Shown here: positions 2,084 to 63,734 of the stretch, piece after piece
Layout: each line of letters opens with the position of its first letter
How positions within the stretch are numbered: position 1 is the first letter of the stretch
DNA from: Macrostomum lignano
Lineage: Eukaryota
Reading direction: 5' to 3'
Assembly: GCA_002269645.1 (NCBI GenBank)
Contig: NIVC01001130.1
Coordinates: 1 to 64,000, forward strand
Length of the DNA: 64,000 nucleotides
Program-made: the position numbers and the translations under genes
Notes under the pieces: model-generated
Told to the model about the DNA's origin: nothing
Seen by the model: only the letters and a program-made list of their open reading frames with translations
The model's database searches: none

Positions 2084-2697
2084 TCAGCCGAAGCTTGTCC
2101 TGAGCAGGCTGCTCACCTGATGCGTGGTTCGCGCCACCAGGGATGCCACTGCCCAGTACAGCGACTGAAACTTAGTGAATCGCTGATCCTCGGTCCGCTC
2201 CAGCAAAAGCAGATAGGCCTCTATGGTCGTAAGCGGTTCTGCTGTACGCACCATAGTCCTGGCGATGTCTAGCAGCCACCGCCAGTCGGCCTGATGCTGA
2301 AGCGGCCATGGCCACGTTCGTACGGCGACGGCCAGCTGTTCCAGGGTTAGCTCATCCGGCTCCGCCAGCGTCAGCTCCGGTACGGCGAGCATCGGCGCCA
2401 GTAGTACGGATGCTGTGTTGGACAGCGGAGCCAGGCACACGGTGCACCGTACCGCTGAAGACAGCTGAAACACACCCAATGCCGATTTGAACAGAGTCGT
2501 ACATTGGGCTGGTCGCCGCAAAGGGCACATTGGACCCGCGGTCTGCGACAGACGGGGCAGGCGGTAAGGATCGTCACGTCGCCAATTTCTCGCGCCCGCC
2601 CGTCGCAGGGGAAGCACTCCTGGTGCCCCCATTCACAAGTCGGGAGCATCGGCTCCCGTGCCTCGAGGCAGCAGGGGCAGGTATCCATCTCGGTCAT
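2084..2697 (-). pseudogene. Accessory gene RING-B (two C3HC4 RING fingers plus helical C-terminal domain), frameshifted
   Basis: ORFs 2371-2697 and 2084-2632 together match intact copies; small deletion near 2450 relative to the 13286 copy. Confidence 0.85.
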
Positions 2698-2767
2698 CTG
2701 TGGGCGATAGGTATAGGTATAGTTAGAACGATTGAGGATTATTCAAGATACGTAACAAGCATATGTT

Positions 2768-3436
2768 CTATCGGTGAGACCTAAAAAGCCAAATAAAATA
2801 GCTACGTGAGAGCACTAATCGTTTAAGCGCGTGGCAGTATACGTGTAGCGTCCAGTGAAATGATTCATGGTCATGCAAAAACTGCCGCAACTGTCGCTCA
2901 ATCTCCAAGGGTGACATATGACGCAAAAATCCTTGATTTCTATGAGCGTATAAGAGTAGCTGTCGTCGCGACCGCTGAACGAAGCGAGGTACTGGCCAAA
3001 ACTCCAGCCGTCGTTCGATACTCATAGCGGTTAAGGTGTGCATAATGTAAACGGATAAACAACGCGCTGGGTCAGGTATAATACGACACCATTTCTTAAA
3101 AATGTTTTCGCGGGGCATACTGTTACATAAGGGGCATCCTATAATGCCCCTACTAGCGGTTTGCTTCAAACAGTGCATGCAAATAAAATGTTGATGGTTA
3201 CAATATTGAAACGTGCGCCAAGAATAACAATAGGCGCATTGTCGCAAACTATCTCTACAGAGGGGACAATTCTGCCATGGCTGAATATAGTGTGAATCAC
3301 TTAAACATTGTCCGCAAACTTTATGTCCATTGATGCAAATAGTCGGTGGCTTGACAGCCAAGTCATCAGTTAAACATATCGGGCAGTCATATAGCTGCTG
3401 AGGCTGGGGCGCCTGTTTTGACAGTGCGTTGCCCAT
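2768..3436 (-). CDS. Accessory gene RING-A: tandem C3HC4 RING protein with N-myristoylation motif (222 aa from ATG)
   Basis: MGNALSK; CPIC-x12-C-x3-H-x2-C-x2-C-x12-CPLC then CAYC-x8-C-x3-H-x2-C-x2-C-x11-CPLC. Confidence 0.88.
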   Translation of the reverse strand: MGNALSKQAPQPQQLYDCPICLTDDLAVKPPTICINGHKVCGQCLSDSHYIQPWQNCPLCRDSLRQCAYCYSWRTFQYCNHQHFICMHCLKQTASRGIIGCPLCNSMPRENIFKKWCRIIPDPARCLSVYIMHTLTAMSIERRLEFWPVPRFVQRSRRQLLLYAHRNQGFLRHMSPLEIERQLRQFLHDHESFHWTLHVYCHALKRLVLSRSYFIWLFRSHR

Positions 3437-3478: not shown

Positions 3479-3541
3479 GTCGCCTTTTACGACAAGCTTG
3501 CGAAGCTGTAGTGCTATTCTTTATCCCGGTCACTACACGGG
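3479..3541 (-). other. Putative H-type RNA pseudoknot plus two small hairpins in the pol/RING-A spacer
   Basis: CCCG/CGGG stem; loop UGUAGUG pairs with downstream CACUACA; compensated to UGUAGAG/CUCUACA in other copies. Confidence 0.65.
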
Positions 3542-3556
3542 GTTGTTCTCGAAACT

Positions 3557-6500
3557 CTAGCGTGGTCGTAGGTTGTAGCCATGTGGCTGGCTCACATCTG
3601 TCGTTTGAGTCTCCTCGTGCTTCGTCGCGATGTGGCGGTTCGTTGATCGCGTGCGATTAGCGTTGTCTAGTGTCGGTAGAAACGTCGCTGTGTCAGTGTT
3701 GATCTTCTTTAGTCGATGAATGTGTACGTAGAACTGGTGCTGATGTGGATCTTGTACATTAGCCAGGCGTGCCGTTGTCGGTGACGTTAGTTGGACCACT
3801 CGATGGGGTCCTTTATACTTCTGTGCATGTTTATGCGTCTGCTGCGGCGGGTAGTGTAGGTAAACGATGTCGCCGGCCGTCAGGGTTGTCGATCTCGCGT
3901 CGTTGCCGGTGGTCAGAGCCACCTGGTTGTCAATGTTGTGCTTAGCGATCTTCCATGCGAGGTGTAGTTGCGTGACGAATTTCTGAATGGAAGTCGGTAC
4001 TTCCACGTACTGTGATGGTAGCAATTGCTGTGCGAGCAGATTCGGCGGTTGGAAGTCTCGTCCAAACATTAGGAAGAATGGCGTATTGTCCGTTGATCGA
4101 TGAATAGCGCTGTTGTAGGCCATTGTTACAGATTGCAGGTAGATGATCCAGTCTTCCGGCTGTTGGTGCGCGAAATGTGTAATCATGTCGTGCAGGTTGC
4201 GGTGAAACCGTTCAACCATGTTTGCCTTCGGATTGTAGGTCGATGTGTAGATCTGCGTAATGTTGAGAATCCTTACGACTTGCTGAAACAGTTGCGATGT
4301 AAACTGCGATCCGTTGTCCGATGTGAGGTTCTTCGGCGTGCCGTACTTGCAAATGATTTCGTTGAAGAAACTCATTGCCACTGTCTGAGCTGTGATGTCC
4401 GGTATCGGTATGGCGATAGCAAACTTCGAGAAGATATCCAAGGCGGTTAGAATGTAGGTGTAGGCGATGCCCTGGAGACAGCTCGGTGGCAGTGGTCCGG
4501 TGATGTCGATGCTTAGACAGTCCATTGTAGTCGACTTCGGAATGGACTGTAGCTGCGGTTTCTGTCGTCGTCCTGTCTTTGATGCAGCACATGAATGGCA
4601 GTTGTTGCAATACTGCTTGATGTCGCCATACATAGTTGGCCAAAAGTAGTATTGTTCCACTCTCGCGATGGTCTTTGCGGCCGACAGGTGTCCAGCTAGT
4701 GGGTTGTCGTGCAGCTCGTTGAGAATTGCTTGCCGAAACGAATATGTTACGTAGATCTTAGGTTTATTGTCGCTCATCCAGTAGAGCCGTGACTTATTGA
4801 TTGTTAGGTGTTGTCGTTGCTTGCGTAGGAATTTTCGTTCCATGGGACTGAGTTTGATGTTCTTGTCGTCGTCTTTAACCGCTTGGTAGAAGTTGTCGCG
4901 CTCGGTTTCATCCACCAACTCCTTGATGTTAGGGATTGGATGAATGGCGTTGACTTCATAGGCTCTTGACAGGGCGTCCGCGGCTTTGTTGGTAATTCCT
5001 GGTTTGTAGACGAGTTTGTAGTTGTAATCCTGGATCTTGAGTGTCATCCTGATGAGTCGGTTGTTGGTCTGTAGTGTAATCATCTTTGGTTTCGTCTGGT
5101 TTGTCTTGAAGTAGCTGCATTTGATGTCGGTTGGTATCTTGTAGATCATCGGTTGGATATGCGCATCCGTTGGACAAATCATTGGCTTTTCCGTTGCCGT
5201 TGCTTTGGCGACTACTGCTATCAGTAGTATCACGATGATCCAGTATAGCCAGTTTTTCCACTTCTTGGACCTTGCCGTTGTCTTTGCTGGCATTGGCCGC
5301 GATGGCCGCGATCGCCATTCGTTATCTTCCATGTCCGCATCATATCCTTCCGGTTGTTCCATTGGCTGTTTCAGGCGGAAGGCTTCTGATTCGCTTTGCT
5401 TTTTGGTTATTTCAGTATCTTCGTCTGCAGCTTCTTCCGATGTTTCAGTTGTTTCACTCCATTGCGTTTGGTATCTTTTCTCTGTCTTGTAGTCGACCGT
5501 TTGAATATAGGCTTCACCATTTCGTTTGTATCGGATCTCGTAGCATTCGTCGCTGTCGGAACTCGGCTTTTCTTTTATCTGTTCTTTTTCCATTTCTTCA
5601 TCTTTCCATTGTATTTCGTAGCCTTGATCGCTGTCGGAGCTTAGATTTTCCGCTCCCAGTTCTTCCTGCATTCCTTCTTCGGCTCGGTATCCGCTCGTGT
5701 CATCATGCACCTCGCAGTCGTGATCGTTGCCGTAACTTATACATTCTTCTTCTTCCTTCATTTCTTTGTCTTTCGTGCTTGTTTTGTCGTCATCCACTGT
5801 TGTCGATTCATAGTTGTTTTCTCTGCCAGTCTTCATCTTTTCTTCGTTGCCGGTGTCGCTCTCCGCCTCCTCCCTTTTCTTGTGATTTACTTTCTTCCTG
5901 TTTTCTCTGCTGTCTCCGGTGGTCTCTTTTAATTTGATCATTTCGGTTTCATTCGTCTCTTCTGTCTTGTCAGTGTTGTCCTCGTGCGTTGTCTTTTTTT
6001 CGATCAGGCTGATGTCAAGTTCCGGGACTGTGAAGTCCATTTCCAAGTCGTCAATTGTGAACACTTGCTGTTCCTGCTGCTCATTTTCCGGTGTGTACGT
6101 GATGGCATTCGCGTATCGTGGCATTGCTTGCGTCGGCTGTCTTTGTGTGTACCTGACGTTGCGTGGCCTGTAGCCATTATTTCTGAAGCGGCCTTCGTTT
6201 CCGAAGCGGCCATCATTTCCGGAGCGGTCATTATTTCCGAAGCGTCTATCATTTCCGAGGCGTCTCATGCCTTGTTGTTGGCGATTTTGATACTGCTGCC
6301 ATGGTTTCTGCGGCTTCTGATTGTTGAATATCTGTCGCGGCTTGTCGTATCTTGTTGACCAATGAGGACAATTAATCTGATAATGTCCTTCTTGTCCGCA
6401 GTAGTAACATCTGGCTGAGGCTTGTTTATTTCGTCTTTTTTGTTCGGCGATAGCAGCTGTCTGGTGCTGCATTAACTTGTTTAATTGCTGCGTCAGTTTC

Positions 6501-7114
6501 TGCACTTCATTGTTGCCTGTCGTCATTAATGGGGCACTGGCTTCCCATTGCATTCCGCACCGCAAAAGGTCTTCTTCGGTTTCGATATTTTCACGCAGAA
6601 GTCTATCCCGAAGTGACGGCTGTGCGTTGTTTATTACGTGCAGGATGAGGTTTTGTTCGCGATCCATCAATCGTTGTCTTTATCTGGCGGCCAATTCTGC
6701 CGCTCCCAGTGGCGGTTGGTCCGCAGCTTGCAGCGGTGGCTGATGCAGTGCCTTAATTATCTGGCGGATATCGTCCACAAAGGCGAGGAAGGATTCTGTT
6801 GCTTGCATCCTTCTGTTATGTAACTTGTGCAGCAGCACTGATCTGTTTGTGCCGCAACGGTTGAAATGCGCGCGCAGTTGAATGATTAGTGCTGGATAAT
6901 TTTGCTGTGTTGCTGCATCCAGCTTGCCGTAAATTTCTCGCGCAGTACCTTGGAGAAGAGGTGGCAGCAGCTGTGCCTTCTCTGGATTTTGTAGGTTGTA
7001 TTCCCTACATACCAGGTCAAAATGGTCGACAAATGTGTTAAAATCTTTCTCCATCGAGAAAGTACCGACCGTTTCTTTGATGTCTCTGTGTACCGTTGGA
7101 TTGCGCCGCCCCAT
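3557..7114 (-). pseudogene. Copy 1 polyprotein: Gag-linker-signal peptide fused in frame to the RNase H end and integrase by a ~3.9 kb internal deletion; frameshift near 6680
   Basis: ORF 6680-7114 (capsid N-half) plus ORF 3557-6670 (CCHC, acidic linker, WLYWIIVILLIAVV, junction TKPKMITL/QTNNRL, HHCC, D-D-E, GPY/F-like). Confidence 0.9.
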
Positions 7115-11518: not shown

Positions 11519-11665
11519 AGTCGTTAGCCAAGCGTCAGTTGCAGTTATAAAGTCGATTGTAGAGTTCGCTTGTGGAGTCGCTCGGATTAGTCGCCTCTTA
11601 CGACAAGCTTGCGAAGCTGTAGAGCTATTCTGACCCGGTCTCTACACGGGTTTGTTCTCGAAACT

Positions 11666-14656: not shown

Positions 14657-14776
14657 AATTGTCGTCAATTTGTCGCTGTCTTTGTGTCGCTCGGATTAGT
14701 CGCCTTTTACGACAAGCTTGCGAAGCTGTAGTGCTATTCTTTATCCCGGTCACTACACGGGGTTGTTCTCGAAACT

Positions 14777-25027: not shown

Positions 25028-25173
25028 AGTCGTTAGCCCAGCGTCAGTTGCAGTTATGAAGTAGACTGTAGAGTTCGCTTGTGGAGTCGCTCGGATTAGT
25101 CGCCTCTTACGACAAGCTTGCGAAGCTGTAGAGCTATTCTGACCCGGTCTCTACACGGGTTTGTTTTCGCAAC

Positions 25174-29474: not shown

Positions 29475-29587
29475 AATCGTCTTCAATTAGTTAGTGTCTT
29501 GGTCGCTCAGATTAGTCGCCTTTTACAAGCTTGCGAAGCTGTAGTGCTATTCTTATCCCGGTCACTACACGGGGTCGTTCTCGAAAT

Positions 29588-40518: not shown

Positions 40519-40624
40519 TGTCGTCGTTGCTTGAAGTTTGAAGTCGCTCAGATTAGTCGCCTCTTACGACAAGCTTGCGAAGCTGTAGAGCTATTCTGAC
40601 CCGGTCTCTACACGGGTTGTTTTC

Positions 40625-43600
40625 TTAACGAGGTCGCAGATTGTAGCCATGTTGCTGGTTTTCGGTTGATGTTTGTGTCTCCTCGTGTTTTGTTGCGATG
40701 TGGCGGTTCGCCGAACGCGTGCGATCAGCGTTGTCTAGTGACGGTAAAAACGTTGTCGTGTCAGTGTTGATCTTCTTTAGTCGATGAATGTGCACGTAGA
40801 ATTGGTGCTGATGAGGATCTTGCACATTGGCCAGGCGTGCCGTTGTCGGTGACGTTAGTTGGACCACTCGATATGGTCCTTTGTACTTCTGTGCGTGTTT
40901 GTGCGTCTGTTGCGGCGGATAGTGCAGGTAGACGATGTCGCCGGCTGTCAGAGTTGTCGATCTCGTGTCGGTGCCGGTGGTTAGAGCCACCTGATTGTCG
41001 ATGTTGTGCTTGGCTACTTTCCATGCGAGGTGTAGTTGCGTGACGAACTTTTGAATGGACGTCAGGACTTCCACATATTGCGATGGTAGTAGTTGCTGTG
41101 CCAGTAGGTTTGGCGGCTGGAAGTCTCGCCCAAACATTAGAAAGAATGGCGTATTATCCGTTGATCGATGAATAGCGCTGTTGTAGGCCATTGTTACTGC
41201 TTGCAGATAGATGATCCAGTCGTCCGGTTGTTGATGCGCGAAGTGTGTAATCATCTCGTGTAGGTTGCGGTGAAACCTTTCAACCATGTTCGCCTTCGGA
41301 TTGTAGGTCGATGTGTAGATCTGCGTAATGTTGAGGATCTTCACCACTTGCTGAAAGAGTTGAGACGTAAACTGCGATCCATTGTCCGATGTGAGGTTCT
41401 TTGGCGTACCGTACTTGCAGATGATGTCGTTGAAGAAACCCATTGCCACTGTCTGAGCTGTGATGTCCGGTATTGGTATGGCAATAGCAAACTTTGAGAA
41501 AATGTCCAAGGCTGTTAGGATGTAGGTGTAGGCTATGCCATGGAGACAGCTCGGTGGCAGCGGTCCGGTGATGTCGATGCTGAGACAGTCCATAGTTGTT
41601 GACTTCGGTATCGATTGTAGCTGTGGTTTCTGTCGTCGCCCTGTCTTTGATGCTGCGCATGAGTGGCAGTTGTTGCAATACTGTTTGATGTCGCCATGCA
41701 TGCTTGGCCAAAAGTAGTATTGCTCCACTCTTGCAATGGTTTTGACTGCCGACAGGTGTCCAGCGAGTGGGTTGTCGTGCAGCTCGTTGAGAATGGCCTG
41801 CCTAAACGAATATGGCATGTAGATTTTAGGTTTGTTGTCACTCATCCAGTAGAGTCGTGACTTGTTGATTGTTAAATGTTGTCGCTGCTTGCGCAGGAAT
41901 TTTCGTTCCACGGGGCTGAGCTTGATGTCCTTGTCGTTGTTTTTAATTGCTGCATAGAAGTTGTCGTGTTCAGTCTCATCCACCAATTCCTTGATGTTAG
42001 GGATTGGATGAATGGCGTTGACTTCGTAGGTTCTTGACAGAGCGTCCGCCGCCTTGTTAGTAATTCCTGGTTTGTAGACCAGCTTGTAGTTGTAGTCCTG
42101 GATCTTGAGCGTCATCCTGATGAGTCGGTTATTTGTTTGTCCTTTTGTAGTTACGACGTAGGTCAGCGGTGCGTGATCTGTGCGTACTATCGTCGGTATT
42201 GGAGAACCATAGATGTAGTAATGGAACTGTCGTAGGGCGAACAAGACTCCTAGTAGCTCGCGTTCCGTAGCTGACCACTTTGTTTCATTTGGTTTGAGTG
42301 CTCGACTTACGTAGGCGATAGGTCGCTCCTTCTTGTCCTCGGTTTCCTGTAGTAGGACTGCTCCGAGTCCCGTTCCTGAGGCGTCCGTCTCGACTATGAA
42401 GGGTTTGTCGAAGTCCGGATGCTGTAGTAGTGCGTCTGATGTCAGTTGTCGTTTGATTTCGTCGAAACTCTCTTGCTGCTTTTGCGTCCAGTTCTCTCGT
42501 TTCCACTTGTCGAATTTGAGCAGGTCGTACAGCGGTTTTGCTGTCTTCGCGAAGTTCGGTAAGAACTTTCGGAAGTATTGCGCTAGTCCAAGAAACGATT
42601 GGACCTTCGTTATGCTAGTTGGCGTAGGAAACTTTTTTACTTTCTCCACGTTGTCTGGGTCCGGTGAGATTCCTTTGGCTGTCACTTGGTGTCCTAGGTA
42701 ACGTACGTTGTCTCGGAAGAATTTGCATTTCGTCGGTTGCAGCTTAAGACCTTGGCGTTGAATGAGCGCTAGGGCCTTCTCCGTAGCTTCATAGAGTCGT
42801 TGGAAGTCTTCTCCGTAGGCCAAGATGTCGTCGACATAGTGCAGCAGGTTTGTGCATCCTGCAAGCATGTATGCCGTTAGTCGGCTCATTGTTGCTGGGC
42901 TGTTGCTGAGTCCCATTGGCGATCGATTGTACTCGTAGACTTGTCCATTGTAGGTCTTAAAAGCCGTGTACTGTCGTGATTCTTTCTCGATTTCAATTTG
43001 CCAAAATCCATGACGTAGGTCGAACACCGTGAACAGTTTTTCCGTGTTGAGCTTTGCTACTATCTCGGAGATCTTTGGTAGGCTTTGCTGATCCGTCGGT
43101 ATGTACTTGTTCAGCAGTCTGAAGTCGCATACAAGTCGTCTTTCGTTAGTCTCCTTCTTTTGTACCAGTAGGCACGGTGAGGAATAGGGTGAAATTGCTT
43201 TGCTGATGATGCCATGCTTTAGCATTTTATCAATAATTTCGTCAAAGTGTTGTTGCAGATGCTTGGCAATCGGGTACGGCTTGCACTGAATTGGTTCCGT
43301 GTGCGGTAGAAGCTTGATTTCTTGTTTAATGTCTTTAGCGCGTCCGATGTCGTAATCATGATGGCAGAAGGCTTCGTTGTACTTCCACAACAGTTGGCGA
43401 ACTATCTTCTTTTGTTGTTCCGTGATCGGGCTGTCGTCAAAGTTGATTTTCTTTTGAAATTCTTCTTCTGTTAGTCGTGGTGTCGCTTGCTCAATCAGCA
43501 TAACTGATGCTTGAGTGTTGAAATGACCGATGCACATTCCTTGTCGTAGATGAACCATTTCCGCGTTCGGGTTGAAGATTTGTACTGGCAGCTGCTTATC

Positions 43601-44330
43601 TTTTGCCACCAGCACTAGTGCCGTAGGCATCATGATTTGATGTTTTGCCGTGACTCTCCTGTGTGGATCAAATATCATTGCTTCATCTGCCGCGCTGGTC
43701 GCTTTCGCTCTGACCCAGCATGCGCTTTCAGGCTGGATGATGACATCTTGCTGTAGAGTAACTTTTGGTAGTACTCGAATCTGGTTAATCAGTGGTTGCT
43801 CCACCGTGTCGATCCTAAATGTTTGCTTGTTGAAGTCGAAGGTCAATGGTAGTCGAAGCTGCTTGAACGTGTCGATTCCAACAATGACGTCTTGGTTTGG
43901 TAGTTTGTCGATGATGTACGTCGGGACCGTCAGATGTTTATTAGCAATTTTCAAGTCGATATCTGCTTTTCCTAGGATGTTGAGTGAATGTCCTCCTGCT
44001 CCTGCAACTGCGATTGCTGCTGGTCGTACCGCGAGTCGTAGCTTGTTGCATAATTGTTGCGAGATGACTGTGATCGAACTGCCTGAATCCAGTAGTGCTC
44101 GACATGGCAAGTTGTTGACAATGACCTGAGCCATTGCCTTGCCAATCTCAGCGTGTAGCGTGCAGACGTAGTTTTCTGGCCATTTCGGCTCGTGTTGATC
44201 CTGCTGATAACCAGGTGGCTGCATTCTCGGTGCTGTTGGTGTTGTCGGAATCGATGGATACATTCGCGTTGATAGTGTCGGCTGTCCCTGCGTTTCATGC
44301 TGTACGCACGCTGTGCGTGCGGGCAAGTGT
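40625..44330 (-). CDS. pol: Uninterrupted Env-tail-PR-RT-RNase H-IN frame of copy 5 (~1230 aa)
   Basis: ORF 40625-44383: YPSI/PTAP/PPGY, DSG, YVDD, DASG, HHCC, DDE, GPY, GYNLRPR. Confidence 0.95.
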
Positions 44331-46872
44331 TGCTGAAGCATCGTACTATCGATGAGATGATAAAAATCGCCGTAACTACCCATACGACACAGGCACTGTA
44401 GAAGAGTAAGCCTTGATATAGGCTGCCTCTTCCGTTAAGCAGCTCCAAGAAGCTGTTGGTCCAAAACGATTGGATGGCGTTGTCCATCGATACAAGGACC
44501 GGGAAAGTGCGTGTTCCCGTTCCTTTATTCTTTCGTGTGAAGAGTTGACGAATCATCTTCCGTTGAGTGATGAACGCTTGCAAGAAGTCGTTGATGGTCC
44601 ATCCGGGTGTTATCTCATCGAGTTGGATATCGGCGAATGGCGTGTACTTCGTTCTGTTGAACCGTATCTTCAGATCGTCCATATCGTACGTTTCATCGAC
44701 AATCTCTTCTGGTTCCGTGATGTTCGCTGTCGTTCCTGTCGTTTTAATGACGTGTAGTGCATCGTCCAGTTGATAGTAGTTTGCTGCAGTGGTGCAGGGT
44801 CTTGGTATGGCTGTGCCAACGATGATGTTGTGTACCGTGTCCAAGAATCCTTGTATTCTTTTGCCTTCGTAGAATGCTTCAATTCTCGGCTTGTCGTAGC
44901 AAGTTGTTGAAGTGTTCGACGGCAAGATGTTGAAGTGCTCTATCGGCGTGCACTTGTATATCAGGAGATGTCCATATATCGGAATTGCCAGAACCTCTCT
45001 CATTCCCGTGATCTTGCGAAATGTCATCGTAGGGTTGACATAGTAGTTCTGTCTTGCGTAGTTCAAGTTGATTGCGTGCATTTTGCAAGTTAGCTGAACC
45101 AGTGACCGATGTAAGTGGTTAAGCTGGTTATGCAGGTTGTGATCCAGCGCCGTGATCTTTGCTGACAGTAGTCGGTTTGACACCAATCGTGGACGTTCTA
45201 TGTCGCGTCGTTGTCTCTCTTGTTGCTGATATGTTCCGTTTATGATTGCCAGGAAGGTTTGTTTGTCACCATCCTTCACGTAGACTGGTATTTCTTGTTC
45301 CGAAATGAATAGCGTCTTGTCCGTATCCTTGCATTTGAGTTCCTGTTCGACCGGCTTCTTTTGAAACTTCAAGGCCAAGTCTCCTGCTTTTGCCAAAAAC
45401 GTATTCGACAGTAGTCCTCCTTCCACTGTGTGATACTTTTGAAGCTTGCAGTCAATTTCCGGCTCTACTTCCCATGCGAAGAAATATTGTCGTGACTTGT
45501 ACGGTTCCTCATAGTGTGAGTGTGCTCTGTGCTCAATCTGCCATCGATAGTTTTGATGATATGTTGGACTCAGTGGTAGACTGTGTAGTTCTTCCTTCCG
45601 TAGAATTGGTGTTGGACACCAGCCTTCACTGTATCGACATTCGCTTAGTTGCAGCTGTAACGATTCCATTTTCTCGTATGGATTGTAGTAGAATGGAATA
45701 TTTCTGATCAAGTAGCTGTTGCGTGCCACATATTCTTTCCATTTTCCGAAGAAGTGAATGTATCGACCGTTGGCTGAATTCTTTGTTCTGAACAGCTGTG
45801 CGTTGCCGACCTTCTCATCTGGTTCCAGTTCACCATCCTTTGAAAACAGTGTTTGGTTCCATTGTAGGCATTCCGCGTGCGACACATGTAGCTCATGTTG
45901 TTTAAATCGGATCCGGTTCCATTGTCCGCGCCAAACTTTTTCTACTAGGTGCTTGTCTCTGAAGCACACTATTCCGTGTTGTCGATGCTTTTTGATGTTA
46001 GCCTTGTAGAGATCAAGTGTAATCTTCTTTGGCTTCGTCTGGTTTGTCTTGAAGTAGCTGCATTTGATGTCGGTTGGTATCTTGTAGATCATCGGTTGGA
46101 TATGCGCATCCGTTGGACAGATCATTGGTTTTTCCGTTGCCGTTGCTTTGGCGACTGCTGCTATCAGTAGTATCATGATGATCCAGTATAGCCAGTTTTT
46201 CCACTTCTTGGACCTTGCCGTTGTCTTTGCTGGCATTGGCCGCGATTGCCATTCGTTATCCTCCATGTCCGCATCGTATTCTTTCGGTTGTTCCATTGGC
46301 TGATTCTGGCGGAAGGCATCTGATTTGCTTTGCTCTTTGGTTATTTCAGTATCTTCGTTTACGGCTTCTTCCGATGTTTCCGTTGTTTCACTCCATTGCG
46401 TTTGGTATCTTTTCTCTGTCTTGTAGTCGACTGTTTGAATGTAGGCTTCACCATTTCGTTTGTATTGGATCTCGTAGCATTCGTCGCTGTCGGAACTCGG
46501 CTTTTCTTTCCTCTGCTCTTTTTCCATTTCTTCATCTTTCCATTGTATTTCGTAGCCTTGATCGCTGTCGGAACTTGTATTTTTCGCTCTCAGTTCTTCC
46601 TGCATTCCTTCTTCGGCTCGGTATCCGTTCGTGTCATCGCGCACCTCGCAGTCGTGATCGTTGCCGTAACTCATACATTCTTCTTCTTTTATTTCTTTGT
46701 CTTTCGTGCTTATTTTGTAGTCATCCACTGTTGTCGATTCATAGTTGTTTTCTTCGTCGGTCCCCCTCTTTTCTTCGTTGCCGGTATCGCTCTCTGCCTC
46801 CTTCCTTTTTTTGTGATTTACTTTCTTCCTGTTTTCTCTGCTGTCTCCGGTGGTCTCTTTTAATTCGATCAT
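44320..46872 (-). CDS. env: Acidic linker - signal peptide - complete gB-like ectodomain - TM of copy 5; frame to pol broken by a small deletion after the TM
   Basis: ORF 43972-46872 is open from the linker through the TM. Confidence 0.88.
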
Positions 46873-47302
46873 TTCGGTTTCATTCGCCTCTTCTGTCTTG
46901 TCAGTGTTGTCCTCGTGCGTTGTCTTTTTTCGATCAAGCTGATGTCAAGTTCCGGGACTGTGAAGTCCATTTCCAAGTCATCAATTGTGAACACTTGCTG
47001 TTTTTGCTGCTCATTTTCCGGTGTGTACGTGAATGCATTCGCGTATCGTGGCATTGCTTGCGTTGGCTGTCTTTGTGTGTACCTGGCGTTGCGTGGCCTG
47101 TAGCTATTATTTCTGAAGCGGCCGTCATTTCCGAAGCGGCCATCATTTCCGGAGCGGTCATTATTTCCGAAGCGTCTATCATTTCCGAAGCGTCTCATGC
47201 CTTGTTGTTGGCAATTTTGATACTGCTGCCATGGTTTCTGCGGCTTTTGATTGTTGAATGCTTGCCGCGGCTTGTCGTATCTTGTTGACTAATGAGGACC
47301 AT
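46869..47302 (-). pseudogene. gag: Gag of copy 5 with capsid and zinc knuckle deleted (~0.7 kb)
   Basis: ATG at 47302 joined directly to sequence following the CCHC motif. Confidence 0.85.
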
Positions 47303-53733: not shown

Positions 53734-54246
53734 TCAATCAACGGCGAGTGCTTCTTCCGATCTGTGACGTGGACTCGGCCGGGGGAGAAGAAACGCCACC
53801 CGCTCATACTGCAGACGGAGACGCCTATGGAGCTGCAGCTGATTAACGAGAATTGCTTGCTGGGCACCGTTCAAACGCCCTTGATGTTGTAGATGCATTA
53901 AAAATGCATAGCAGCTGCCCAAGTGGCGGTCTGCCACAATAAACCGATGCGTGCATTTTGCAGCGATTTTTCGGAGCTTCATGTCGCGTCTCGCCATCTC
54001 GTGCGACACATGGACTTGAAATTCGAAAGCGGACAAGTCCCCATCGTAAAACTGCTGCAGTAGATTCTTCTCCGTGTAGCGGTGCTTTCGGTAATATTCC
54101 ACCGGCTCCCGAGCAAACTCGTACCCTCCTTTCCAGCATTCCAGCCGAGCCATCAGAGCCAGATTGCGGACAAGGGAAGACTTCCCCGCCCCAATTAGAC
54201 CTTCGATCACGTAAGTTCGAGTCTGTACACGGACTTGGGCGGCCAT
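53734..54246 (-). CDS. Deoxynucleoside kinase (dNK/TK2-like), intronless, probably C-terminally degraded
   Basis: P-loop IEGLIGAGKSS; REPVEYY; LLQQFY; FEFQ; VADRHLGS..AF in family order; lid region not recognisable. Confidence 0.8.
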   Translation of the reverse strand: MAAQVRVQTRTYVIEGLIGAGKSSLVRNLALMARLECWKGGYEFAREPVEYYRKHRYTEKNLLQQFYDGDLSAFEFQVHVSHEMARRDMKLRKIAAKCTHRFIVADRHLGSCYAFLMHLQHQGRLNGAQQAILVNQLQLHRRLRLQYERVAFLLPRPSPRHRSEEALAVD

Positions 54247-54262
54247 TTGCTGAAATGAATAA

Positions 54263-54622
54263 TTAGAAGGCTGCTTGGGGCAAATGTTGGAAAACCTCCA
54301 ACACTTGCTTTAGTTCCTCGAGATTTTGAGGACCAAAGACTATTTTCCGACTACAGAACTGGTTCAGGAACAGCCTCGGGTTGCACTGAAGCCTGCGAAA
54401 GATTGCCATAGGGAAATTTTCCTTATCCATGCTTAATCGATTTAAGAGAGCGAGAGCGCAACTGTGGGCGGCGACAACCATCGAGAGGATGGACCATTTA
54501 ACCGGAACGAGGGTACTGTGGATGGCAGCAATCAGCGCTGGTACCACCCTTTTCTCGAGCCGGAGCCTAATCCTGCATCTCGCCTTTATGGCCGACATCG
54601 CCACCTTGATGGGTGCGGCCAT
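54263..54622 (-). CDS. Hypothetical 119-aa ORF directly upstream of the dNK
   Basis: ATG start; ends 16 nt before the dNK ATG; no recognisable motif. Confidence 0.35.
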   Translation of the reverse strand: MAAPIKVAMSAIKARCRIRLRLEKRVVPALIAAIHSTLVPVKWSILSMVVAAHSCALALLNRLSMDKENFPMAIFRRLQCNPRLFLNQFCSRKIVFGPQNLEELKQVLEVFQHLPQAAF

Positions 54623-59720: not shown

Positions 59721-60979
59721 GCCCAGAGACGCGCTCTCTGACTTCTCCCCCCTTTCTGGCCACTGCGTGGCTGGCGGGTGAAGTACTTTTGCTGTGTTGT
59801 GTTGTTGTTAGCGAGTTAAACAATATGTGCATATTATTAAAACAAATTATAGAAATTCGCTGATTGGCTAACAATTTAATACTGGTATTAGTAGTAACGT
59901 ACGCTAGTTTTATGCCCTATTTCAGTAATAAATAATGATAACAGAACTATAAACGATTTGAAATTGCAAACTTGTGAACATTGAGAAATGTAACCTGTTG
60001 GAGCTTTTTTAAGTCTCAGTAGAATCTGCACAAAATGCTTAGAGAAAGCTGCAGAACTGCTTGGAGATTAGCGGAATTTGCTCAGGGACTGTGCAAAACT
60101 GCTTATACACAAGCACTACACTGCTAAGGAGCCGTCCGGAGGGGGGCGAAATGGCTAGTACTACTTACTATATTCAAATGAGTACTATGCATCGCATGTA
60201 AGCTACGCGCGTTGTTCGTTATTTCTACGAGTATTATCTAATATATCTATCGATCCACCAAGCTATTTATCCGGAGGAGTTGTCAATTTAAAACTGCTAG
60301 AAATTACTCACTGTGTCTGGCTAAGTAGGCTGACTATCCTTAAATGATCATCGCATGTTAATATTTTTTGCAATGATATTTATGTCATTTTTCGCTAATA
60401 TCTACTTTTATGGAGCTGGTCAGTAATAAACGATGGGCACTAAATTATTCTACTTGGAAACGGAATAGCCGCTTATAATCTTTTGACCAAGTTGATCATT
60501 TTTTTAGGCAAAGCTCCCAAACCGGCTTGTAGGGCCTGGGAGAGAAAGGGATTTGCTGAATGTTTAGAATGGAATGTATAAATATTGTACAATAATAAAG
60601 TCTGCGAGTTCAAGCGACTTTGGTATGTTTGCTAAAGCATTGGGGTGGTCGGCTGTCTTCCTCCATTGATTTCTCTGTTTAGGGCGGTAAGATTACGTAA
60701 TTAGTGTGTGCAGTGAGGGCGGGTGCCGATTTCCTTGTCTGCTGCTGCTGCTGCGGTCGCTGCGCGGCTCTCGCCAAATATGCAGACATGTTGGGACAGA
60801 GGGAGGTGTACCAGTAAAGACGGCCGAGTGTGACAATACGAGGGTAAGAGTGACACGAACTGCATAGGCTAACCAGATCATATTCTTTTCCACTTAGGCA
60901 CCAACACCCTGCAGTATCCATCTTATTCCTTCACATACCCCACACTAATCGCTAATATCCGGTCAAGATCCAACACATT

Positions 60980-61765
60980 CTGTTCACACTCACACCCTAC
61001 CCTGCAAGATCCAACCCATATTCTGTCACATATCCCACACCCTACCCTGCAAGATCCAACCCCATATTCTGTCACATATCCCACACCCTACCCTGCAAGA
61101 TCCAACCCCATATTCTGTCACATATCCCACACCCTACCCTGCAAGATCCAACCCCATATTCTGTCACATATCCCACACCCTACCCTGCAAGATCCAACCC
61201 CATATTCTGTCACATATCCCACACCCTACCCTGCAAGATCCAACCCCATATTCTGTCACATATCCCACACCCTACCCTGCAAGATCCAACCCCATATTCT
61301 GTCACATATCCCACCCTACCCTGCAAGATCCAACCCCATATTCTGTCACATATCCCACACCCTACCCTTCACGATCCAACCCATATTCTGTCACATATCC
61401 CACACCCTACCCTTCACGATCCAACCCATATTCTGTCACATATCCCACACCCTACCCTGCAAGATCCAACCCCATATTCTGTCACATATCCCACACCCTA
61501 CCCTTCACGATCCAACCCATATTCTGTCACATATCCCACACCCTACCCTGCAAGATCCAACCCCATATTCTGTCACATATCCCACACCCTACCCTTCACG
61601 ATCCAACCCATATTCTGTCACATATCCCACACCCAACCCTGCAAGATCCAACCCCATATTCTGTCACATATCCCACACCCTACCCTTCACGATCCAACCC
61701 ATATTCTGTCACATATCCCGCACCCAACCCTGCAAGATCCACCCTATGCTCTGTCACACCCCACA
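60980..61765. repeat. 45/46-bp minisatellite, about 17 units
   Basis: CCACACCCTACCCTGCAAGATCCAACCCCATATTCTGTCACATATC and a CTTCACG variant. Confidence 0.95.
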
Positions 61766-62269
61766 CCATGCTGCAGTATCTTGCTTTACTTGAATTTCTG
61801 CTGCAGAAGCAAGCATCTATATAGGCCATGTTTGTAAATACTCGTAACTACATGTAACTTCATCAACTGCATTTAGCCGTAAGTCCCACAGCTATTTACA
61901 AGTAGGCTTTGACTTCAGAGCAGAGCTTGAGAGGCGAAGGATAACAAGGGCTGAGCTTATCCGCATGCAGCTAAGCAAACCTTGCCGTGCCTGGGCTGAC
62001 TGCGCCAAGCCTTTCTCTCTGCACCCTATTTATGCTAATTTGTTTCCCAATCAGGCGGGGCTTCTAAGCTAGTCTATTCCCGGCATAACTGGCGATGCGC
62101 ACCAGCTACCAGCAAACATGCACTCCATCGATTGTAGTTGGTGATAATATTCCTGTCTGGCTAAGCGGCTGGCGCAGAGGGGAGATTGTCGGGAAGACTA
62201 CGATTAAGTGGCTGGAGGGGGGAGAAATTAGGGAAGTTAGAGAAATCTGCGGAGAATGTGAAGAGTGGG

Positions 62270-62810
62270 GGAGAGAATAGAAGAGGGGAGAGGAGAGGAG
62301 AGAATGAGATAGGAGGGGATAAGAGGGAAAGGAGAGGCGAGGCGAAGAGAGGAAAGGAGGGGTAAGGTACTCGTAAGAGGGAAGAGGAGAGGAGAGGAGA
62401 GGAGGCGGTAAAGGTATGAGGGGACCGCTATGAGGTGAAGACGGCATGACTTGTTTTACATGTCATGCAGCCAAAAAAGCTCTGATGAAAGCCACCCAGA
62501 TCCCTCAGATCCTCAGAGTAGAATCCCGGGTCCTATTCTCTCCTCACCTCTCTTTTCTCTCCTCACATCTCCTCTTTTCTCTTACCCCCTCGTCTCCTCT
62601 ACTCTCCTCTCCTCTCCTCTCCTCTCCTCTCCTCTCCTCTCCTCTCCTCTCCTCTCCTCTCCTCTCCTCTCCTCTCCTCTCCTCTCCTCTCCTCTCTTCT
62701 CCTCTCCTATCCTCTACTCTCCTCTCCTCTCCTTTCCTCTCCTATCCTATCCTATCCTCTCCTCTTCCCTCATACCTTAACCCCTCCTCTTCTCTCGTCT
62801 CCTCACCTCT
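62270..62810. repeat. Purine-rich (GGAGA-like) tract and (CTCCT)n microsatellite
   Basis: 62270-62405 and ~62590-62760. Confidence 0.9.
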
Positions 62811-63734
62811 CCCTAAAGAGAGGCGAGAGGCTAAGGAGATAGATGCTTACAGAAGACAATCGCAGAAAAATAGCAGCTCGAAAAATGAAGCAGAGAAGAA
62901 GTGATGAAAGATCAGAGTAGGAGATCAATATTCTAGCTCGTAGTACCCTCTTATTTCGAATTTTTCATCTGGTCGGGACTTGAATTGGGACACCTTCGCT
63001 CTGGATGATGAGAAAGAAGCTGGGATCGTAGCAAGGAGTTTTGTTGGGGAGGATTTGTGATTTTTTGTTTGCCAAGACGGCGCTCACCTCTCTCAGGCCC
63101 TCCCGAGCTGGTGCAGACCGCGGACTGCAGGATTTGCATATACAAGCTTAGGACGAGGCTCTTGTGCTTCGTGGAGCGGAATCTGATGCTCAGTTAATGA
63201 GAGCTGCACCTCCTCGTGTGCCCCCTGCCTCCGATCTGATGTTGGACTTCTTTTCTGGCACAGTGGCATCGCTATATTGGGATTGCTTGCCAGGGTGTCC
63301 GACAGGGGGCGGTGGGGTCACGGCTATTCTATACACGAGCTGAGCACTTGTCTGCTGGCGGCTTGACACTTCTCTGTTTCATTCGATCGATTCCGCAGAG
63401 TTGACAAGGTCATGGAGCCCGCCTTGCGGTTTCCTGTTTCCAGTTAATCTTCATCGAAATTAAACTCTCCAGTTCTGACCAACCTCACCCCCACCCCCCA
63501 GGCGTCATCCTCTGCAGAGCTGCAGGTTCGATCTGAGCTCTTCTCAGAATATGACGACCTCTGCGTTATGGAATATCGCTTGCTTCAGCTTCAGGATTTT
63601 TATACCAGTACTTGTAAAGAGTACATACAGCACCCTTAACTGTTAGGGGGTTTGGACTTTTATCTGTAAATTTTCTTAAAATTTTCACATGGGAAATTGA
63701 GACTCTGGTTTATAATTTTAAATGACCAGGTGAT

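Follow-up and report, generated by a model that had tools for sequence, protein, structure and literature searches.

The window, by which we mean the whole stretch of 64,000 nucleotides analysed here, contains six copies of a Ty3/Gypsy LTR retrotransposon, all on the minus strand. The assignment to this group rests on the LTRs and on the order protease, reverse transcriptase (RT), RNase H and integrase. The element runs LTR, gag, glycoprotein, protease-RT-RNaseH-integrase, the RNA motif described in this report, RING-A, RING-B, purine tract and LTR. The clade has gag, env and pol in a single reading frame, behind which come two or three RING ORFs, and several genomic copies have this frame open over 2,378 to 2,546 codons. 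The genome searched was a 764-Mb eukaryote assembly (G000); the names RING-A and RING-B and the subfamily labels A to E are working labels. Relatives of the integrase among proteins include two at 94 to 95% identity (one of them named, a 95% fragment from Macrostomum lignano), and the others are at most 40% identical. The features of copy 1 around the motif, and the motif in the remaining copies, are as follows.

2084..2697, minus strand: RING-B, frameshifted in copy 1
2695..2730, minus strand: RING-B 3' splice-acceptor-like site, an AG-free tract with CAG directly before the ATG
2768..3436, minus strand: RING-A ORF, 222 aa
3437..3478, minus strand: leader, A/C-rich, weakly structured and AUG-free; 32 to 70 nt across subfamilies
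3557..3559, minus strand: stop codon of the gag-env-pol frame, copy 1
3557..6679, minus strand: polyprotein remnant of copy 1, in which an internal deletion fuses the gag end and env start to integrase
11590..11650, minus strand: motif copy 2, A-U state
14699..14761, minus strand: motif copy 3, U-A state
25099..25159, minus strand: motif copy 4, A-U state; probably recombinant, since its integrase groups with the A lineage
29515..29573, minus strand: motif copy 5, U-A state
40556..40616, minus strand: motif copy 6, A-U state; spacer of 8 nt

The env gene lies between gag and pol in the same frame (window 40625-47300, minus strand, and locus L090) and encodes a glycoprotein with a signal peptide and a transmembrane segment, whose ectodomain is similar to class III viral fusion proteins (PF24664, E 6.6e-5, below the cut-off; atlas 0.89). 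At least six diverged copies are arranged head to tail on one strand between window positions 1 and 52000, and similar clusters occur on G000 contigs C87 and C2121; we take this one-strand arrangement to recall a piRNA source locus. RING-B codon 199 has been rearranged to about 14 nt upstream of the knot, duplicating the knot and RING-A (L039; G000:C87:230435, C2121:64290), a single event seen at two sites. An ORF with a deoxynucleoside kinase match (window 53737-54309, minus strand; PF01712, E 4e-9) lies outside the element copies, and tandem arrays of 45-46-nt and 5-10-nt units are found at window positions 60970-61788 and 62507-62831.

The pseudoknot and its conservation

The motif of copy 1 occupies positions 3479-3541 exactly, from stem 1 through the end of the last hairpin, as originally predicted. 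Its parts, listed from the stop codon toward RING-A, are as follows.

3542..3556, minus strand: spacer of 15 nt, unconserved (8 to 18 nt across copies)
3525..3541, minus strand: stem 1 (CCCG/CGGG, 4 G-C pairs) and a 9-nt loop supplying the 5' strand of stem 2
3515..3524, minus strand: loop 3, A-rich, 8 to 10 nt, ending in a near-invariant AGAAUA
3507..3514, minus strand: 3' strand of stem 2, which has 8 pairs, one bulged A and three covarying states, and ends in CAG
3495..3507, minus strand: middle hairpin, with two G-C pairs common to all subfamilies and a hypervariable loop
3479..3493, minus strand: last hairpin, 5 bp with a purine pentaloop, within a near-invariant 20-mer

All six window copies (6/6) contain the hairpin with 0 mismatches to a W-degenerate pattern, for which the chance mean is 0.12 and which 0/100 shuffles match six times. 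The original prediction had noted a compensatory U-A to A-U swap in the helix between loop and downstream strand, and the copies bear this out: the partner strand switches in step with the loop, the knots starting at 3541, 14761 and 29573 being in the U-A state and those at 11650, 25159 and 40616 in the A-U state (all minus strand). The helix itself is present with 8 pairs and one bulged A in place of the 7 pairs first described, and the spacer put at about 15 nt measures 15, 15, 15, 14 and 14 nt in five copies and 8 nt in one. Two small hairpins had also been proposed. The middle one (AGCUU/AAGCU) does not hold as a conserved feature, as the divergent D subfamily has an alternative fold in its place and one decayed copy has lost it by deletion; the last one (GUCG/CGAC) keeps its sequence but shows no compensatory change, and a 3-nt deletion breaks it in the 29573 copy. 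Because the window copies amount to one covariation event (rough chance estimate 0.009), the stronger structural support comes from other genomic subfamilies.

A RING-A search of G000 recovered subfamilies down to about 40% identity. A census of 110 loci, 6 of them lacking a site, covered 105 distinct sites; the 105 sites are not independent and represent about five lineages. Stem 2, with its 8 pairs and bulged A, is complete at 105/105 sites, and stem 1 (4/4 pairs) at 104/105. The last hairpin is complete at 102/105, one of the three misses being merely shifted by a deletion. Stem 2 occurs in three sequence states, at 58, 38 and 9 sites, and no site is mixed. The further covariation in relatives on which the prediction had depended was found in the D subfamily, which adds two compensatory pairs and a shifted bulge. 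Seven differences separate D from B in the loop and partner strand, and all seven are absorbed: A-U becomes G-C, C-G becomes U-A, the bulged A moves by one, and a C-G pair is gained. When seven substitutions were placed at random, all 8 pairs survived in 0.033% of 200,000 trials, a post hoc figure for one lineage. Across the family three stem-2 pairs vary on both sides. In an 11-row alignment 96.6% of cells pair, compared with 32 to 42% for slid partners, a control that favors a structure derived from the same sequences. On the integrase tree the U-A/A-U pair needs two changes, or recombination.

Conservation is higher in the 62-65-nt core than in the integrase codons next to it. Among seven subfamily representatives pairwise identity is 0.73 to 1.00 in the core, 0.62 to 0.94 in the last 300 integrase nucleotides and 0.31 to 0.76 in the leader; between A and E the core reaches 0.95, against 0.66 for integrase, 0.50 for the leader and 0.48 for RING-A. 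The folding energies are unremarkable (z of -1.25 to +0.72 over 11 folds, from a folding tool that ignores knots). Stem 1 changes on both sides in just one decayed copy, L071, and we discounted this double change as CpG-type decay. The loop thus pairs with a downstream strand in a covarying helix, the defining property of an H-type pseudoknot, and on these sequence comparisons the structure is real and well supported. We infer a minor-groove contact between loop 3 and stem 1, and the first U of the 9-nt loop probably spans the groove unpaired, as in classical H-type knots. No conserved long-range partner for the motif loops was found.

Allowing up to 2 mismatches, the genome contains 104 matches to the 20-mer over the last hairpin, compared with 2 for a reversed control, and 99 of the 100 matches listed are exact. 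The hairpin shows no covariation anywhere in the family; its pairing is therefore putative, and what is conserved is its sequence. In the D subfamily (L061-L067) a different 5-bp hairpin can sequester the 3' strand of stem 2, and five variants differ only in its loop; this hairpin is a possible conformational switch.

Start sites of the RING ORFs

The motif begins 8 to 18 nt after the pol stop at 92/105 sites, these being the sites at which the stop was located by script. At 99/105 sites the first AUG behind the motif, 95 to 134 nt from the knot start, opens a RING-type N-terminus, and 95 of these 99 starts have A at -3 and G at +4. Predicted folding of the intervening leader is 0 to -1.8 kcal/mol in 6/7 representatives and -8.5 in one. 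The RING-A N-terminus carries an MGxxxS myristoylation-like motif in subfamilies A, B and C only, not in D or E.

The two RING ORFs differ in what precedes their start codons. RING-B has a CAG 0 to 2 nt before its ATG, behind a 20-70-nt AG-free zone, in 6/6 subfamilies tested. RING-A is without such an acceptor, as had been predicted: the nearest AG lies 6 to 55 nt upstream and in no fixed place, and subfamily E has no AG within 55 nt. A sister family, whose pol is 34 to 38% identical and stands in the same kind of single frame, has a different 3' ORF preceded by the same CAG and AG-free kind of acceptor in 4 loci tested, and a model of the motif gave 0 matches for the knot in the 13 sister loci searched. 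The acceptors of RING-B and of the sister family are presumably in use. In the sister loci (L136-L150) the purine tract directly follows the pol stop, and the ORF behind the CAG-ATG acceptor is unrelated and 250 to 260 aa long. We saw no genomic copy joining the hairpin to the RING-B start, in that none of 94 short-pattern matches fell at the listed RING-B positions when compared by eye.

The RING ORFs are cysteine-rich paralogs with 20 to 27% identity to each other (window 2084-3436, minus strand; L061-L067). A structure model of RING-A (pLDDT 89) matches only RING domains, none at E < 0.001. Searches of protein databases for RING-protein homologs of near length found 0, and 10 accessory proteins, 2 sister-family controls included, were all absent from the protein collection, an outcome that carries no information.

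Comparison with known systems

The intergenic (type 6) IRES of dicistroviruses directs a non-AUG start that immediately follows the knot and is in frame with the ORF. In the present motif, subfamilies differ in the frame that follows stem 2, and this frame often runs into a stop. The ORF2 type IV IRES of megrivirus E is also a structured pseudoknot RNA between a polyprotein stop and a small accessory ORF, and some of these accessory ORFs begin with MGxxxS/T, as RING-A can; the intergenic region there is 267 to 283 nt with a double pseudoknot and a GGG loop (PMC13034579, PMC13431491). The motif, in contrast, has about 65 nt, one knot and no GGG loop, and a variable leader follows it. Type IV IRESs as a class are given 235 to 400 nt, a double pseudoknot and an apical GGG loop in PMC13431491, compared with 62 to 65 nt, one knot and a loop of AARAG here.

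Calicivirus TURBS and the SART1 retrotransposon also gain access to a second ORF after a long one (PMC10275272, PMC13431491). TURBS lie upstream of the stop-restart site and pair with 18S h26 through a UGGGA core (PMC13431491), whereas this motif follows the stop, has its GGG paired within stem 1, and shows a longest complementarity to 18S rRNA of 7 to 8 nt, which is not above chance (6 to 13 nt in shuffles). In SART1 the stop and start codons overlap (PMC10275272), whereas the RING-A AUG comes more than 100 nt after the stop. Drosophila MDG1-group elements likewise express extra ORFs, some of them myristoylated, on unspliced Ty3/Gypsy RNA; their sORF2 product is a transmembrane fusogen-like protein in contrast to the RING-type protein here, and the term IRES does not occur in that report (bioRxiv 10.1101/2025.03.14.642691). 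The motif may work like an IRES, TURBS, an exonuclease-resistant RNA (xrRNA) or a readthrough knot even though it fails the defining features of these.

A search of the window against Rfam gave no match at gathering level, and at E up to 10 only chance-level matches appeared, among them 16/17 nt to part of mir-7964 (E 6.4). The hairpin pattern had 5 matches in viral contigs, none with the partner strand; the downstream pattern had 0 matches outside this genome, the full pattern 0 in metagenomes, and the integrase 0 confirmed loci in both collections searched. No description of the motif was found in the literature searched, and the main text of a survey of Macrostomum lignano LTR elements is without the terms RING, envelope, splic-, pseudoknot and IRES (PMC12801592). 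The motif is apparently undescribed and so far confined to one retrotransposon clade in one genome.

Possible roles of the motif

The explanation that we prefer, tentatively and at a probability of roughly 0.35, is that the motif serves RING-A as an element of translational entry or reinitiation. On the dicistronic, unspliced RNA of the element, a compact RNA made of an H-type pseudoknot and a sequence-invariant hairpin would start RING-A translation. Since gag-env-pol is one long frame, every finishing ribosome would stop 8 to 18 nt before the knot, and elongation would leave the knot folded. The motif would then hold the post-termination 40S subunit or recruit a new one, and the subunit would reach the RING-A AUG by scanning the A/C-rich leader of 32 to 70 nt. 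This explanation draws on features that are observed, namely the conserved structure, the place where it stands and the strong context of the first AUG, and a variable, AUG-free leader followed by a strong start fits scanning after entry. The original prediction had likewise proposed a cis element for RING-A expression, and to the extent that sequence can speak to this, the position close to the stop, the strong first AUG and the presence of acceptors only at the other accessory ORFs agree with it. In the simplest reading, the motif would do for RING-A what a splice acceptor does for the other ORFs; either internal entry or reinitiation would fit the evidence. There are precedents: ORFs that follow picornavirus polyproteins are reached through compact IRES or reinitiation signals (PMC13431491, PMC13034579), and SART1 reinitiation requires RNA structure downstream of the stop (PMC10275272). 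The small size, about 65 nt only, and the position after rather than before the stop, unlike TURBS, count against an entry element, as do the chance-level complementarity to 18S rRNA and the persistence of the motif in the amplified lineages with truncated RING-A described below.

The motif might instead itself contain a gated acceptor, a reading that we consider improbable. The CAG that ends stem 2 would accept the host spliced leader or an LTR donor, with the knot limiting its use so that full-length RNA survives, and the strand of the last hairpin would pair with the leader RNA and open its donor stem. The host trans-splices about 30% of its genes, with YTNCAG as the top trans-acceptor motif (PMC8629364). 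Stem 2 ends in CUACAG, and thereby in this hexamer, at 95/105 sites (background 2 to 3 per kb), yet the hexamer is absent in D; moreover, another AG lies 7 to 8 nt upstream of the CAG, with 32 to 40% pyrimidines, against 20 to 71 nt and 44 to 80% at the other acceptors, so that the AG-free, pyrimidine-rich tract expected upstream of a splice-acceptor YAG is not found. The invariant strand can pair over 13/14 nt with the leader exon of this genome (dG about -17), a value that for subfamilies B, D and E ranks within the best 0.5% of 20-nt windows, and another LTR family in this genome carries a leader copy in both LTRs. However, the idea is post hoc, the pairing is borderline under whole-motif controls, which equal it in 6 to 29 of 150 shuffled leaders and in 3 to 24 of about 155 element windows, and A and C carry a mismatch (dG about -11). 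As observations in their own right, we note that the Gypsy element L200 (G000:C108:360900-369400) has spliced-leader exon copies at its positions 349 and 8042 and a DnaJ-domain ORF after pol, that several leader matches are paired 7 to 8 kb apart, suggesting a family of leader-carrying elements, and that genes for 18S rRNA, U1 snRNA and spliced-leader RNA are repeated together on the same contigs (G000:C1211-C1214).

Other explanations remove the motif from RING-A or let it act on RNA ends or decoding. Rous sarcoma virus has a stability element downstream of a retroviral stop codon, and the motif could similarly serve the genomic RNA, a possibility of appreciable though minor weight: it would protect an RNA whose 3' region measures 1.5-3 kb from nonsense-mediated decay, or have a part in export, packaging or reverse transcription, and it would stand after the stop simply because non-coding room first becomes available there. 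The motif is indeed kept intact in the two most amplified lineages, which have lost RING-B and retain only 124 or 70 aa of RING-A, and in non-autonomous lineages with hardly any pol left; the amplified lineages show 0 to 4 of about 300 integrase differences, however, and because they are so young the retention is no test and has no statistical power. The sister family also has a long 3' region yet no knot, and a genomic-RNA role leaves RING-A translation and the conserved start context unexplained. An exonuclease block, also raised in the original prediction, appears unlikely. Xrn1 or Xrn2, after decapping or cleavage near the pol stop, would halt at stem 1 and leave a 3'-coterminal RING-A RNA that is translated with the hairpin's help. 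The knot does lie at the 5' edge of the module with nearly its whole loop paired, and class 3 xrRNAs and coremin also combine a small pseudoknot with a long loop-downstream helix, stand between genes in some viruses and, in coremin, are followed by a second hairpin as in the motif (PMC6299227, PMC12397905, PMC10321173); plant-virus intergenic xrRNAs precede coding subgenomic RNAs (PMC6299227). We rate this reading low because the features that anchor class 3 xrRNAs (stacked P1/P2, J1/2 bulge, L2B T-loop and AGY anchor; PMC12397905) are replaced by a single 4-bp stem and a 9-nt loop, and because four H-type frameshift knots, with or without a following hairpin, failed to stall Xrn1 (PMC10321173). 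The product would also be uncapped, and the host of the motif, in contrast to those of xrRNAs, is a nuclear-transcribed retrotransposon. None of the sequencing runs that contain the element is recorded as RNA. Assembled contigs from four presumed RNA runs cover copy 3 in 30/30 bins with no evident depth step at the knot; of 29 joints the 15 listed include no splice joint, and of 143 loose ends the 24 listed include none resembling the leader. Since contigs cannot show RNA ends or levels, this is evidence neither way.

Self-cleavage and recoding are less probable still. The pistol ribozyme has a stem-loop-knot with an A-rich linker, loosely like the motif, and a second helix that the motif lacks; HDV-like ribozymes have nested P3/P4, which are absent from it. 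A self-cleaving ribozyme of a new class that frees RING-A RNA, left open by the original prediction, would account for the many invariant unpaired nucleotides and is compatible with the supported knot, but it is very improbable: two subfamilies gave no Rfam ribozyme match at E up to 10 (best matches at chance level, E 3.7 to 6.4), and cleavage would cut the genomic RNA, which is the reverse-transcription template. Murine leukaemia virus has a readthrough pseudoknot, an H-type knot just behind a retroelement stop codon, and the motif shares this placement, with one copy having an 8-nt spacer. In contrast to the viral knot, however, its spacer has anything from 8 to 18 nt and changes the frame, the stop is UAG in some copies and UAA in others, no slippery heptamer was seen, and no open reading frame through the motif is common to the subfamilies. 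Readthrough and frameshifting are thus unsupported, and a stimulator of either kind can scarcely be entertained.

Returning to translational entry or reinitiation, a bolder conjecture, which we hold to be doubtful, is that the 65-nt pseudoknot-hairpin represents a new minimal class of element that catches ribosomes after the stop and restarts them downstream or, bolder again, that it pairs with spliced-leader RNA and so caps a subgenomic mRNA at an acceptor gated by the knot. Little is known of how ORFs behind pol are expressed in LTR retrotransposons when splicing is not used. The motif is small, supported by covariation and available in three natural states, it offers a built-in contrast with an acceptor-bearing neighbor and with sister ORFs, and its host is genetically tractable. 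As a 65-nt signal for ribosome entry or reinitiation, should it prove to be one, it would be much smaller than type IV IRESs and a useful tool. Either form, ribosome catching or leader-RNA pairing, would if true give LTR elements a new means of running a polycistronic genome.
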